In this document: positions 1 through 31,356 of the stretch, in pieces
Position numbering within the stretch: the first letter of the stretch is position 1
How the letters are laid out: the number at the start of each line of letters is the position of its first letter
NCBI GenBank assembly: GCA_045636445.1
Contig: JAZTXO010000152.1
Span: forward strand, 40,370-104,369
DNA length: 64,000 bases
Direction of reading: 5' to 3'
DNA from: Eubacteriales bacterium
GTDB taxonomy: Bacteria; Bacillota; Clostridia; Oscillospirales; CAG-272
The notes under the pieces: generated by a model
Databases searched by the model: none
Told to the model about the DNA's origin: nothing
What the model saw: only the letters and a program-made list of their open reading frames with translations
Position numbers and translations under genes: made by a program

Positions 1-218
1 TTTCGAAAATAATCGTTGACTATTTCGGCAAGAGCTTCAAGGAGCTTTTGCTTGACGAGAGAATGAAAACGGCAAAACGGCTTCTTCTTGAAAGCGATAT
101 GTCGGTTGGGGAAATAATTTACAGTGTCGGCTATGAAAACGAATCTTATTTTCACAGAGAATTTAAAAAGAGATACGGAGCAACGCCTCTGGGCATAAGA
201 CGCCAAAGGGAGCTGTAA
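1..218 (+). CDS. AraC/XylS-family transcriptional regulator, C-terminal HTH end (5' part outside window)
   Basis: Frame-3 translation reads ...FKELLLDERMKTAKRLLLESDMSVGEIIYSVGYENESYFHREFKKRYGATPLGIRRQREL*, typical of the second HTH of AraC-type regulators. Stop TAA at 216-218. Absent from the ORF track because no start lies in the window. Confidence 0.7.
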   Translation, partial: SKIIVDYFGKSFKELLLDERMKTAKRLLLESDMSVGEIIYSVGYENESYFHREFKKRYGATPLGIRRQREL

Positions 219-241: not shown

Positions 242-991
242 ATGAAAGGATATATACATTCTAAAGAATCATTTGGCACTCTGGACGGCCCGGGAATAAG
301 ATACGTGCTTTTTATGCAAGGCTGTCCTATGCGTTGCCTTTACTGCCATAATCCCGACACCTGGAATACTCAAGGCGGCAAAGAAATCGAAATTGACGAT
401 ATAATCAAAGAATACAAAAACAACGAAGGCTTTTATCGCAGCGGCGGAATAACCGTTACGGGCGGAGAGCCGCTGATGCAAATAGACTTTGTCACCGAGC
501 TTTTCAAGGTCTGCAATAAAAACGGCATACACACCTGCATTGACACTTCCGGAATAACGTTTTCACAAAACGACCGTCAGATTGAAAAATTTGACGCTCT
601 TATGGAGCATACCGACCTTGTAATGCTGGATATAAAGCACATTGACCCGTCATCTCACAAGACTCTGACCGGCAAAGATAACGAAAATATCCTCGCCTTT
701 GCAAAATACCTTTACAAAAAAGGAATCAAGGTCTGGATAAGATATGTCCTTGTGCCGGGATACACCGACAAGGAAGAGCATCTTTTGAAACTTGCCGATT
801 TTATAGCTCCGTTAAAAAACATCCGAGCAATAGAGGTGCTTCCTTATCACACTTTAGGCGTACACAAATACGAAAGTCTTAATATTCCCTACCGCTTAGA
901 TGGAGTGCCTACGCCAACAAAGGAGCAGGTGGAAAATGCAAAAACTGTAATTGTAAGCAGAATTAAGGAAAAACGCAGCTCTGAAATATAA
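242..991 (+). CDS. pflA: Pyruvate formate-lyase activating enzyme (radical SAM)
   Basis: 249 aa. N-terminal radical-SAM cluster motif CPMRCLYCHN and a GGEPL motif, collinear with PflA. RBS AAAGGAG just upstream of the ATG. Sits directly upstream of pflB. Confidence 0.93.
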   Translation: MKGYIHSKESFGTLDGPGIRYVLFMQGCPMRCLYCHNPDTWNTQGGKEIEIDDIIKEYKNNEGFYRSGGITVTGGEPLMQIDFVTELFKVCNKNGIHTCIDTSGITFSQNDRQIEKFDALMEHTDLVMLDIKHIDPSSHKTLTGKDNENILAFAKYLYKKGIKVWIRYVLVPGYTDKEEHLLKLADFIAPLKNIRAIEVLPYHTLGVHKYESLNIPYRLDGVPTPTKEQVENAKTVIVSRIKEKRSSEI

Positions 992-1040: not shown

Positions 1041-1069
1041 TTGACTTTGAGCTAAAAATATTATATAAT
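1041..1069 (+). promoter_or_regulatory. SigA-type promoter for pflB (TTGACT-17-TATAAT)
   Basis: TTGACT at 1041-1046, exact 17-nt spacer, TATAAT at 1064-1069, about 90 nt upstream of the pflB ATG. Confidence 0.5.
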
Positions 1070-1160: not shown

Positions 1161-3260
1161 ATGATTACCGATTACGCTGGCTGGGAAGGCTTCGAAAACG
1201 GAAAATGGAGAAAAGAAATTAACGTTAGAAGCTTTATCACCCATAACTATACACCATACGACGGAAACGAGGATTTCCTTGAAGGTGCAACCGAATGCAC
1301 AAAAGAGCTTTGGGACATAGTTCTTGAGCTTTCAAAGCAGGAGAGAGAAAAAGGCGGAGTCCTTGATATGGACACCAAGATAATTTCCACCATAACCTCT
1401 CACGGCCCTGCATATCTTGATAAGAATAAAGAAAAGATTGTGGGCTTCCAGACAGACAAGCCCTTCAAGCGCGCTCTTATGCCCTACGGCGGTATAAGAA
1501 TGGCGGAAAAGGCTCTTAAGGATAACGGCTACGAAATAGACCCCGAAGTAAAGAAGTTCTTTACCGTTCACAGAAAAACTCACAACGCAGGCGTTTTTGA
1601 TGCATACACTCCCGAAATGCGCGCCTGCCGTTCAAGCCATATTATTACAGGTCTGCCCGATGCTTACGGCAGAGGAAGAATTATCGGTGACTACCGAAGA
1701 GTTGCTCTTTACGGTGTTGACAGACTTATTGAGGACAAGCAGATGCAGAAGGACACCTCCCGTTCAACAATGCTTGCCGACAACATCCGTGACAGAGAGG
1801 AGCTTTCCGAACAGATAAGAGCTCTTGAAGACCTGAAGAAAATGGCTCTTTCCTACGGCTACGATATTTCCGAACCCGCAAAGGATACAAAGGAAGCTAT
1901 TCAGTGGCTTTACTTCGGCTATCTTGCAGCGGTTAAGGAGCAAAACGGAGCAGCAATGTCTCTCGGACGTACCTCCACCTTCCTTGATATTTACGCAGAG
2001 CGTGACCTTGCTCAGGGCAGATACACCGAGGAGGAAATCCAGGAGCTTGTCGACCACTTCATAATGAAGCTTCGTCTTGTAAAATTTGCAAGAACTCCCG
2101 AATATAATTCCCTCTTCTCCGGCGACCCCCAGTGGGTTACCGAATCTATTGCGGGTATGGGTATCGACGGACGCCACATGGTTACAAAAATGTCTTACAG
2201 ATATCTTCACACCCTTGAAAACCTCGGCGCTGCTCCCGAGCCTAACCTTACCGTTCTGTGGTCTACAAGACTTCCCGAGAACTTTAAGCGTTTCTGCGCT
2301 CGTATTTCTATCGAGACCTCGTCTGTTCAGTATGAGAACGACGACCTTATGCGTTTTACTCACGGTGACGATTATGCTATCGCCTGCTGCGTTTCGGCTA
2401 TGAAAATAGGAAAGCAGATGCAGTTCTTCGGCGCAAGAGCGAACCTTGCAAAGTGTCTGCTTTACGCTATCAACGGCGGTGTTGACGAAATTTCAGGCGA
2501 GCAGATAGGCCCTGAATACCGTAAGGTTGAGGGCGAATATCTCGACTTTGACGACGTTATCCGCAAGTATAACGCTATGCTTAAATGGCTCTCCGAGGTT
2601 TACGTTAACACACTTAATATCATTCACTATATGCACGACAAGTACTGCTATGAGAAGATTCAGATGGCTCTTCACGACAAGAACGTTACCCGCTGGTTTG
2701 CAACGGGTATTGCGGGACTTTCGGTTGTTGCGGACTCTCTTTCGGCTATCAAGTATGCAAAGGTTAAGCCTATAAGAGACGAAAGAGGACTTGCCGTTGA
2801 CTTTGAAATCGAGGGCGACTTCCCCAAGTACGGAAACGACGACGACAGAGTAGACTCTCTTGCTTACGACGTTATTCAGATGTTTATGAATCACATCAAG
2901 AAAAAGCAGACCTACCGCGACAGTATTCCTACCACCTCGGTGCTTACAATTACCTCTAACGTGGTTTACGGTAAGAACACCGGAGCAACCCCCGACGGCA
3001 GAAAACGCGGCGAGGCATTCGCTCCCGGCGCAAACCCGATGCACAAGAGAGACACCAACGGCGCTATCGCTTCTTTGGCGTCTGTTGCAAAGCTTCCCTT
3101 CAGAGATGCTCAGGACGGTATTTCAAACACCTTCTCTATAATCCCCGATGCTCTCGGTAAGGACGACCGCATCTTCGTTGGCGACATTGACGTGGATTTG
3201 GACTGCGGCTCGGGCGCTTGCAACGCTCCCACTCTCTTCGAGGGACTTGACGCAGAATAA
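1161..3260 (+). CDS. pflB: Pyruvate formate-lyase (formate C-acetyltransferase) catalytic core, lacking the C-terminal glycyl-radical domain
   Basis: 699 aa, collinear with PFL. Active-site Cys pair is present in [12 protein letters not shown], and homology runs to ...[22 protein letters not shown] (ends about nt 3167). It then continues with 31 unrelated codons and stops at 3258-3260. No RVSGYAV glycine loop in this ORF. Confidence 0.9.
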
Positions 3261-3367
3261 TTTCGAGAAAATCATTCTCACGCAGGAAAGTGGGAATTTC
3301 AATCTTGCAACGCAAGAATTTTACGCAGACGCAGTCTGCATTTCATCTCCAAGAAAGGAAAAATATT

Positions 3368-3610
3368 ATGGCAGCAACTCAAAATCAGATAGATAATTTG
3401 GTATCTCTCCTTGACGGATACGTTGAAAAGGGCGGCCACCACCTGAACGTTAACGTTTTCACCAAGGAAACGCTCCTTGACGCTCAGGCTCACCCCGAAA
3501 AATATCCCCAGCTTACCGTAAGAGTAAGCGGCTATGCGGTAAACTTCATTAAGCTTACCAAGGAGCAGCAGGACGAGGTAATTTCCCGTACCTTCCACGA
3601 CCAGATCTAA
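3368..3610 (+). CDS. Free-standing glycyl-radical domain protein (GrcA/YfiD-like; corresponds to the missing PflB C-terminus)
   Basis: 80 aa: [80 protein letters not shown]. Contains the RVSGYAV glycyl-radical fingerprint. Own RBS (AAAGGA) about 8 nt before the ATG at 3368. Reading frame differs from pflB. Confidence 0.85.
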
Positions 3611-3630
3611 AGTTAGAGAACGAGATTTAG

Positions 3631-3737
3631 GTAATTTTTATAAAAACGACGCAAAAACTTTTGGTCAAGGAATTTTAAACTGTAAAAAAGGGCAAAGGCA
3701 CTCATTTTCGGCGCCTTTGCCCTAAAATGTTTTTATT
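3631..3737. repeat. Direct repeat copy 1 (~107 bp, contains a terminator hairpin)
   Basis: Near-identical to 4267-4375. A 47-nt identical core is TTTTATAAAAACGACGCAAAAACTTTTGGTCAAGGAATTTTAAACTG, followed by GGGCAAAGGC...GCCTTTGCCC TAAAAT.TTTTTATT. A few substitutions and one 2-nt indel. Confidence 0.9.
3690..3722. terminator. Bidirectional intrinsic terminator (inside repeat copy 1)
   Basis: GGGCAAAGGC / GCCTTTGCCC stem. T-rich tract follows on the + strand (after the grcA-like gene) and a T6 run on the - strand (after the XRE gene). Confidence 0.65.
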
Positions 3738-3960
3738 CGCTCTTCGGCGGAACAAATTCAATCAAATCCTCGATTTTGCAATCCAAAACAGTGCAAATCC
3801 TTGCAAGAACATCTGTGTCAAGCCTTGTAATTTTGTTTTTGCAATAGTTGTTTATTTGAGTTCTTTGCATCTCCGCTTTGTGGCTGAGCTTGTTTTTACT
3901 TATGCCCTTTTCTTTTATAAGCTCATCAAGCTTGATTTTTATTTTTCCGTATTCGTTCAT
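3733..3960 (-). CDS. XRE/Cro-C1-type helix-turn-helix transcriptional regulator (75 aa)
   Basis: MNEYGKIKIKLDELIKEKGISKNKLSHKAEMQRTQINNYCKNKITRLDTDVLARICTVLDCKIEDLIEFVPPKSE, a classic small HTH_XRE pattern. I use the internal ATG at 3960, because the track's longer N-terminus runs through the promoter region. Confidence 0.8.
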   Translation of the reverse strand: MNEYGKIKIKLDELIKEKGISKNKLSHKAEMQRTQINNYCKNKITRLDTDVLARICTVLDCKIEDLIEFVPPKSE

Positions 3961-3983
3961 TACAAATTCCTCAAGTTTTAGTA

Positions 3984-4013
3984 TTGACAAATCTATTATA
4001 TATAAGTTATAAT
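3984..4013 (+). promoter_or_regulatory. Promoter for the AbrB-like gene (TTGACA-18-TATAAT)
   Basis: TTGACA at 3984-3989, TATAAT at 4008-4013. Overlaps the divergent promoter at 3995-4023. Confidence 0.55.
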
Positions 4014-4023
4014 ATAAATGTAA
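3995..4023 (-). promoter_or_regulatory. Promoter for the XRE gene (TTACAT-17-TATAAT on minus strand)
   Basis: Minus strand reads TTACAT (4023-4018), 17-nt spacer, TATAAT (4000-3995). It interdigitates with the + strand promoter. Confidence 0.5.
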
Positions 4024-4077
4024 GATGTAGAAAGTCTTGTGAGACTTCTTACACATATATGGTGCGGGAGAATTATA

Positions 4078-4257
4078 ATGGAAAAGCAGGGAATAAACAA
4101 AGAAATCGACTCGCTGGGCAGGCTTGTTATTCCGAAAGAAATGAGAAGTCTTTTCAAGATGGAAACCGAGGTAGAGCTTATTGTCACAGAAGAAGGCATT
4201 CTTGTAAGAAACCCAAAATATAAGCTTGTTGAAGTAAAAGAGAACAAGATAGATTAA
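4078..4257 (+). CDS. AbrB/MazE/SpoVT-family DNA-binding protein (59 aa)
   Basis: MEKQGINKEIDSLGRLVIPKEMRSLFKMETEVELIVTEEGILVRNPKYKLVEVKENKID. GRLVIPKEMR is the swapped-hairpin SpoVT/AbrB signature. RBS GGGAG sits 8 nt before the ATG at 4078. Confidence 0.75.
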   Translation: MEKQGINKEIDSLGRLVIPKEMRSLFKMETEVELIVTEEGILVRNPKYKLVEVKENKID

Positions 4258-4266
4258 AGGTACGGG

Positions 4267-4375
4267 GTACTTTTATAAAAACGACGCAAAAACTTTTGGT
4301 CAAGGAATTTTAAACTGCAAAACAAAAGGGCAAAGGCGCTCATTTTCGGTGCCTTTGCCCTAAAATATTTTTATT
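4267..4375. repeat. Direct repeat copy 2 (~109 bp, contains a terminator hairpin)
   Basis: See copy 1 (3631-3737). The two copies exactly bracket the XRE/AbrB pair. Confidence 0.9.
4328..4360. terminator. Bidirectional intrinsic terminator (inside repeat copy 2)
   Basis: GGGCAAAGGC / GCCTTTGCCC stem between the convergent AbrB-like (+) and MATE (-) genes. Confidence 0.65.
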
Positions 4376-4386
4376 TGGTTATTACT

Positions 4387-31102: not shown

Positions 31103-31356
31103 ACAAAAAGCCCCAAGCATATATAGTATGCTCGGGGCGAAAATATCCGCGGTGCCACCCGAATTCAGGACGAGTCCTCTTACGCACAAATCTATGCGTT
31201 TTGCAGATAACGGTGCAACCGTCGAAGCCTACTCTTTAAAATTTCGGTTCGCCCTCGAAAGTCCATTCACCGTGCCGTTTTATACCGCACTCTCACCGTC
31301 TGCGGCTCGCTTTGATAACCCTATACTCGGTTACTACTCTTTCTCATAGGTTTGAT
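31103..31356 (-). promoter_or_regulatory. T-box riboswitch leader, Trp specifier (UGG), with terminator/antiterminator
   Basis: Minus strand shows a Stem I start ...GAGAAAGAGUAGUAACC..., a distal GGUGAGAG, and a specifier context GGUGAA-UGG-AC (UGG = complement of 31263-31265). The conserved T-box AAUUCGGGUGGCACCGCGG is the complement of 31147-31165. The terminator GCCCCGAGCAU...AUGCUUGGGGC (31110-31138) is followed by UUUUUG. Confidence 0.9.

Follow-up and report, generated by a model that had tools for sequence, protein, structure and literature searches.

Here, we analysed a 64,000-nucleotide (nt) stretch of DNA from a Eubacteriales bacterium (contig JAZTXO010000152.1; hereafter the window), in which pyruvate formate-lyase (PFL) is encoded by two consecutive genes on the plus strand: a truncated pflB of 699 amino acids (aa) at 1161..3260, and an 80-aa protein of the GrcA3 type at 3368..3610 that carries the glycyl-radical loop. 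Our comparisons make it quite probable that PFL is here an obligate two-subunit enzyme, naturally split, whose radical cartridge can be replaced. The sequence further indicates that the small subunit is translated independently, from its own ribosome-binding site (RBS) and ATG, and that the split is old, widespread and natural. An initial annotation, made from the letters of this DNA alone, had left three readings side by side, and the first of these, a naturally two-subunit PFL, is the one that the data support: the arrangement is shared by different phyla, and the small subunit has a curated family model.

The large open reading frame (ORF) carries the active-site cysteines as ACCVS at residues 408-412 (nt 2382-2396) and follows canonical PFL up to ALGKDD at residues 664-669 (nt 3150-3167), after which 30 codons lead to the stop at 3258-3260; the initial annotation had placed both the end of canonical homology at 3167 and the stop at 3260 correctly. 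Against the TIGR01255 model, the ORF scored 1108.7 bits (cut-off, 994.2) and covered positions 2-665 of 744, and it further matched Pfam PFL-like, part of Pfam Gly_radical, and PDB entries 38lb, 38la, and 1h16. The closest solved structures are 38lb (1155 bits) and 38la (1110 bits). The large subunit lacks strand beta10, the glycine loop, and the C-terminal helix, and the single chain expected of a PFL, with its Cys-Cys pair and a C-terminal RVSGY loop, is not formed here, as the loop resides on the separate 80-aa ORF. In a collection of 5.8 billion proteins, the 120 best homologues of the large ORF are 73-91% identical to it, and all but two are 696-722 aa long (here and below, figures for the best protein homologues cover the top 120 matches or clusters). 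In the two longer homologues, P0003 (805 aa) and P0011 (821 aa), ~105-120 residues are repeated exactly in tandem within the protein, probably through assembly artefacts in metagenome contigs. The homologue sequences that we inspected terminate in a tail and carry no radical domain. The exact large-subunit protein of the window is not on record in public assemblies.

The missing C-terminus of PFL was found, where the initial annotation had proposed it, in the 80-aa ORF whose ATG at 3368 begins eight bases past an AAAGGA RBS (3354-3359) and which ends at 3610. It comprises a helix, strand beta10, the RVSGYAV glycine loop, and a C-terminal helix; the loop, which is the glycine-radical fingerprint, occupies residues 52-58, with Gly55 (nt 3530-3532) as the radical glycine. 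The ORF matched part of Pfam Gly_radical and scored 169.3 bits against the NF038360 GrcA3 model (cut-off, 158), covering positions 2-78 of 78, whereas it fell below the cut-offs of the GrcA model TIGR04365 (91.9 versus 170 bits) and the GrcA2 model NF008341 (103.8 versus 145 bits). It aligns to residues 683-756 of Escherichia coli PflB and to residues 68-125 of E. coli GrcA. The 120 best small-subunit clusters are 91-100% identical and mostly exactly 80 aa long, and NCBI/GenBank records label these homologues GrcA or GrcA3. An identical small protein was found on six contigs; a PFL large-subunit gene lies directly 5' in all six, encoding 699 aa in three and being cut by the contig end in the other three.

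Together, the two ORFs divide a single PFL between them. The 106 positions of Pfam Gly_radical are shared as 1-50 on the large and 49-106 on the small ORF, the 744 positions of TIGR01255 are tiled as 2-665 and 664-743, and E. coli PflB is represented by residues 10-680 and 683-756, respectively. Homology ends at large-ORF residue 671 (PflB 680) and resumes at small-ORF residue 9 (PflB 683). The breakpoint, which the initial annotation had left to alignment, thus lies between PflB residues 680 and 683, with ~28 extra residues on one side and eight on the other, and the large subunit stops two residues short of the start of the E. coli PflB radical domain.

The same division recurs in related genomes. 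Scanning one genome per species yielded 80 loci, of which two are cut by contig ends; in all 78 complete loci, the large gene is truncated at the same residue and is directly followed by a small glycine-radical gene. The hosts include Acutalibacteraceae, Oscillospiraceae, Ruminococcus, Lachnospiraceae, Catonella morbi ATCC 51271, Christensenellaceae, and many Collinsella. Wherever gene calls exist, a Radical_SAM/Fer4_12 gene adjoins the split PFL genes. Since the Collinsella protein, from another phylum, is 79-80% identical to the Clostridia protein over the last 211 core residues, our alignments suggest that the split PFL has passed horizontally between gut phyla (Clostridia and Collinsella/Actinomycetota). 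In the Collinsella loci (L043-L080; e.g. L055, 1597-3648 and 3734-3985), the tail is short and free of cysteines, and a conserved spacer of 85 nt holds two hairpins.

An alternative reading takes GrcA3 as a spare-part repair protein for a full-length PFL encoded elsewhere, the truncated pflB being a decaying or differently functioning paralogue. The family name given by NCBI, autonomous glycyl radical cofactor, speaks for it. However, the truncated gene is strongly conserved, at the 73-91% identity given above, and keeps its ACCVS motif; it always lies immediately 5' of the small gene, with pflA adjoining wherever gene calls exist; its truncation point is identical in different phyla; and the two ORFs tile the PFL profile without gap or overlap. 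In addition, no second glycine-radical motif was found in the 64-kb window. We therefore regard the spare-part explanation as unlikely, although it is the best of the alternatives.

A second alternative, raised in part by the initial annotation, holds that the intervening DNA, as an intron or a different kind of element, is cut out of the RNA, or that the two parts are fused by stop-codon readthrough or frameshifting. The ~200 nt with small hairpins that separate the parts in the window, and the shared frame of both ORFs in 19 of the 78 loci, are in its favor, but the comparative data contradict it and make it very improbable. No group I or group II Rfam family was detected in 2900-3800, even at E ≤10. 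In some relatives the large and small genes overlap by 17 nt or lie 3, 4, or 13 nt apart, which leaves no room for an intron, and the longest gap is 118 nt (273-344 nt where a third gene lies between); even among close relatives with an identical small protein, the spacer differs. As the relative frame of the small gene is 0, 1, or 2 in 19, 50, and 9 loci (n = 78), no single recoding rule fits. Moreover, the residues before the stop are conserved as protein, and the small gene has its own Shine-Dalgarno sequence and ATG in nearly every locus, a Shine-Dalgarno-like sequence being present in 77 of 78.

Those residues, which the initial annotation had taken for 31 unrelated codons, form a C-terminal tail of the large subunit (3168..3257, plus strand) whose protein sequence is maintained in >100 homologues and 38 of the 80 genome loci, and whose start aligns to PDB 38lb. 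Its consensus reads [IV]FxGD[IL]x[VI][DE][LF][DE]C-xxGAC-xx-PTLF[ED]GLD, followed by acidic residues. In the window, the two cysteines are Cys682 (nt 3204-3206) and Cys687 (nt 3219-3221), and PTLFEGLD occupies nt 3228-3251. Among the 80 loci, 37 carry the long tail, one carries another cysteine-pair tail, 37 have a Collinsella-type short tail without cysteines, and three combine a short tail with a separate gene between the two PFL genes. The tail DNA of the window and of loci L001 and L002 differs mainly at third codon positions, and over 24 loci the proportions of synonymous (pS) and nonsynonymous (pN) differences were 0.79 and 0.13 (pN/pS 0.17), with synonymous sites saturated and with loci picked by their protein pattern, which makes this test of purifying selection partly circular. 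Taken with the profile match described below, these comparisons indicate that the tail is under purifying selection and is a conserved functional module, which the initial annotation had overlooked.

A counterpart of the tail exists as a gene of its own. In several loci (L038, 3654-3998; L040, 3675-3963; L069, 3654-3927; L081, 5001-5270; and further L090, 4001-4192; L092, 4001-4207; L094, 4001-4219), a 60-90-aa protein, here termed the middle ORF, is encoded between the truncated PFL gene and the radical-domain gene. Its N-terminal part has the consensus KQIDDIVxMLDxFMxxGGGHMNxxV and is followed by the cysteine module and an acidic end; its invariant residues are two cysteines, one proline, and the histidine of GGH. 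Profile comparison by hhalign matched the middle-ORF C-terminus to the window-type tail (probability 97.2%, E 3.3e-11) and its N-terminus to that of the small subunit (probability 96.4%, E 1.3e-9), such that the N-terminal half is similar to the radical domain in its first helix and strand. The RVSGY fingerprint is absent from the protein, its global alignment with GrcA3 is unreliable past the first ~37 residues, and a cysteine in place of the radical glycine is a guess. Between the tail and the true radical domain, hhalign found no similarity.

A profile search of 1.84 billion representatives gathered 170 clusters of the middle-ORF family at 50% identity, nearly all of them short stand-alone proteins. 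The family gave no Pfam match and no PDB match by single sequence or profile; it is uncharacterised, and its members are named "hypothetical" if named at all. In all loci examined, the most divergent included, the middle ORF has the truncated PFL gene, of 680-688 aa, on one side and the radical-domain gene, of 79-81 aa, on the other, and pflA lies 3' of the radical-domain gene in those having gene calls, sometimes with a small ferredoxin gene next to it. In Lachnospiraceae-type three-gene loci, this gene encodes a 2x[4Fe-4S] ferredoxin of 55-56 aa after pflA (L081, 6598-6765; L090, 5433-5603), possibly a dedicated electron donor for the activase; in the window, the operon is not followed by a ferredoxin gene. 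Of the middle ORF, the window lineage seems to have only the cysteine/PTLFEGLD half, which is fused to the large subunit. Such a fused tail could arise by an in-frame deletion that joins the "…VELD" of the short tail to the "…SLD-C" of the middle gene.

With the tail assigned, the ~200 nt between the PFL parts no longer form one piece, as had been proposed, but consist of 93 nt of conserved tail coding sequence and stop, a non-conserved 107-nt intercistronic spacer (3261..3367, plus strand), and ~24 nt encoding the small-protein N-terminus. Besides the RBS, the spacer contains three small hairpins (3274-3297, 3303-3317, and 3325-3339), with a fold z-score of about -2. The internal repeats listed by the initial annotation are present, but they are marginal: the 10-mer CTTGCAACGC occurs at 3217 and 3304, with an equally good match in 16 of 2000 shuffles, and ACGCAG has 25 copies in the 64 kb, four of them inside 3250-3329. 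Several of these repeats form arms of the three hairpins, which the repeats largely reflect. A partial duplication of the tail-coding DNA in the spacer was also considered and rejected, as only the single 10-mer aligns.

The spacer itself is variable. In the nearest relative, L001 (96% protein identity), it measures 16 nt, and ~91 nt of the window spacer are absent; for this reason, the ~91-nt hairpin-rich segment is a recent strain-specific insertion. In close relatives whose small protein is identical, the spacer measures 77-79 nt and carries a different hairpin. No further copy of the spacer was found in the 64-kb window or in metagenome contigs. A conserved RNA in the spacer was rejected, as its sequence is not kept in relatives. 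On the minus strand, 3270-3348 resembles Gut-1 RNA (RF01706) at 32.3 bits, where the gathering threshold is 50 (E 3e-4 for the 901 nt searched); this stretch, antisense to the pflB-grcA3 spacer, holds three small hairpins, each after a UGAAAU-like word. The match was not recovered in the whole-window scan and is absent from 11 related loci, and we treat this sub-threshold match as incidental.

The second reading of the initial annotation, a recent ~200-bp insertion rescued by a new translation start, survives for the ~91 nt of spacer but is refuted for the split, which is old, occurs in Collinsella, and adjoins a tail under selection. As an explanation of the split, an insertion into an intact pflB, like an assembly or sequencing artefact or a pseudogene, is refuted by conservation. 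The strain-specific ~91 nt, and the internal duplications of P0003 and P0011, which resemble assembly errors, lend it some color, but the same split is found in independent assemblies from many studies, hosts, and phyla, both parts show purifying selection, the small protein has a curated NCBI model, and homologous truncated large subunits have solved structures. That the halves are joined post-translationally by a split intein, suggested only by the extra residues on both sides of the break, is least credible of all, as Pfam finds no intein or Hint domain in either ORF, the extra pieces are only ~28-30 and 8 residues, vary in length, and are partly absent in Collinsella, the upstream junction lacks a Cys or Ser, and no His-Asn precedes the downstream one.

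For the two-subunit PFL, we propose the following mechanism. PflA would act on the small subunit, whether free or docked, and generate the radical at its Gly55. The nine-stranded core barrel would receive strand beta10 and the glycine loop from this subunit, and the radical would then move intermolecularly to the active-site cysteine, as it does from E. coli GrcA to damaged PflB. After oxygen destroys the radical, the 80-residue cartridge would be replaced rather than a protein of ~750 residues. Studies on the E. coli proteins are consistent with such a scheme. PFL truncated at residue 695 and supplemented with YfiD has wild-type activity once activated (PMC8683613), PflB-G734A with GrcA yields formate in vivo, and the radical on Gly102 of GrcA passes intermolecularly to Cys419 of PflB (PMC12338860).

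Several points weigh against an obligate two-subunit enzyme. Activation of the E. coli truncated PFL:YfiD complex was 32-fold below that with cleaved PFL (PMC8683613), so that truncation of the core does not by itself ensure a good partner. We infer that the 80-aa protein takes up the radical and that the complex is active, and a full-length PFL elsewhere in the same genomes, if there is one, could allow GrcA3 to serve as a spare part. Structure modeling did not add to the argument: the concatenated large and small subunits modeled without an alignment reached a predicted local distance difference test (pLDDT) score of 34, and a model with an 84-row alignment of close homologues reached 53, with residues 592-729 below 50; neither is usable. 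Finally, the Collinsella-type loci do without the cysteine module, which, accordingly, is not essential to every split PFL.

As for that module, the tail may assist in docking, retaining, or gating the small subunit or the activase, or may act as a tethered thiol or redox element beside the radical site, all of which is speculative. More generally, we tentatively raise the possibility, which we hold with limited confidence, that split PFLs have a third component, namely the cysteine-pair module, stand-alone or fused as a tail, which controls the radical cartridge as an activation/deactivation switch. It might do so by occupying or gating the empty barrel slot, by recruiting the activase, or by quenching or protecting the glycyl radical, as a tethered thiol, on exposure to oxygen. 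If true, this would be a built-in activation/deactivation switch, which is not known for any glycyl radical enzyme. The cysteine-pair tail and the 170-cluster family are the part of this system most worth experiments.

The surroundings of the two genes were also examined. The window opens with the 3' end of an AraC-family regulator gene (48..218, plus strand; Pfam HTH_18 and HTH_AraC) that extends past the window start; in the syntenic relatives L084-L086, a full AraC_binding and helix-turn-helix (HTH) gene lies 5' of pflA. It is followed by pflA itself, adjacent to pflB as expected for a PFL, which encodes a 249-aa PFL-activating radical-SAM enzyme (242..991, plus strand; Pfam Radical_SAM 1.4e-31 and Fer4_12 1.2e-21). 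A promoter-like site, TTGACT-17-TATAAT, was located 5' of pflB (1041..1069, plus strand) by a consensus scan with 11/12 matches and is a pattern match only. The region from the end of the AraC-type gene through pflA and pflB to the small ORF reads as an operon. Downstream of the small gene, a strong hairpin, not assigned to a strand, lies between A-runs and T-runs (3682..3736, core stem 3690-3722; minimum free energy -22.3 kcal/mol and z-score -4.4, equalled in none of 200 shuffles), and is likely a bidirectional terminator for the pfl operon and a convergent HTH gene.

Altogether, 776 nt (3611-4386) separate grcA3 from a convergent MatE gene. This interval holds a Cro/C1-type HTH gene on the minus strand (3733-4056), an AbrB/MazE-like gene on the plus strand (4039-4257) that is divergent from it and overlaps it, and strong promoter-like sites at 3984-4013 and 4024-3995. 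Because the syntenic relatives L085-L089 have only ~57 nt at this place, 3611-4386 looks like a small inserted regulator or antitoxin-like module. In the 64-kb window as a whole, a single Rfam family exceeds its threshold, namely a T-box leader on the minus strand (31130-31356; 109.1 bits with a gathering score of 93; E 3.5e-23).

In many gut anaerobes, PFL is the central enzyme that turns pyruvate into formate, and it owes its oxygen sensitivity to the glycyl radical. The carriers of the split PFL include abundant gut bacteria among Collinsella, Oscillospiraceae, and Lachnospiraceae; if the two-subunit reading is true, placing the radical on a cheap, exchangeable 80-residue subunit would help to explain how such bacteria tolerate transient oxygen. 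A protein that is annotated as a "spare" cofactor would here probably be the sole radical source, which matters for metabolic reconstruction. The split PFL would also offer a ready-made system for studying activation, since the activase has the free radical domain as its substrate, and the design of PFLs for formate assimilation could take the natural breakpoint as a guide.

Among known systems, the nearest is E. coli GrcA (YfiD), which, like the small ORF of the window, is a free-standing glycyl-radical domain; in E. coli, it is activated by PflA and supplies the radical in trans. The E. coli core, however, has a radical domain of its own, with GrcA as a backup after oxygen damage, whereas the core in the window never has one, and the small protein would therefore be obligatory. 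The two small proteins differ in build as well: E. coli GrcA has 127 aa with a disordered N-terminal half, while GrcA3 has 80 aa and includes the helix before strand beta10. The small ORF of the window is a full-length member of NF038360 GrcA3, above the curated cut-off. The name of this family implies a repair role, and the sources found are silent on a neighboring PFL without a radical domain, on the tail, and on the middle ORF.

Two PDB entries titled 'Formate acetyltransferase', 38lb (739 residues) and 38la (687 residues), resemble the large subunit and have no matching radical domain, and the small ORF gives no match to them; judging by these alignments, they are structures of the homologous truncated large subunit. 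Entry 38la is cut at ALGK, while 38lb has a cysteine-containing tail whose start, GNVMFGECDM, aligns to that of the window. Past the first ~10 aligned residues, the 38lb tail (…CDMCEMKELDDVSK…), recovered by chimeric queries to residue 707, diverges from that of the window and shows no PTLFEGLD match.

Other glycyl radical enzymes, such as benzylsuccinate synthase and 4-hydroxyphenylacetate decarboxylase, are built from several polypeptides; their small subunits are accessory, and the radical glycine is on the large chain. The genes-in-pieces ribonucleotide reductases of phages show that a radical enzyme split within a domain can remain functional. Those splits are caused by homing-endonuclease insertions, of which, unlike in the phage reductases, there is no sign at the split in the window.

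A 2026 review of glycyl radical enzymes mentions only spare parts of the E. coli type, and we found no paper on a natural split PFL, on GrcA3, or on PDB 38lb/38la. Given that a curated GrcA3 model and the entries 38la and 38lb exist, the split is already known to annotators and structural biologists and is apparently unpublished. Compared with these precedents, the present locus is an ordinary member of a widespread, annotated PFL/GrcA variant, and what is new is its reading as an enzyme with an obligate radical subunit, together with the cysteine-pair module.

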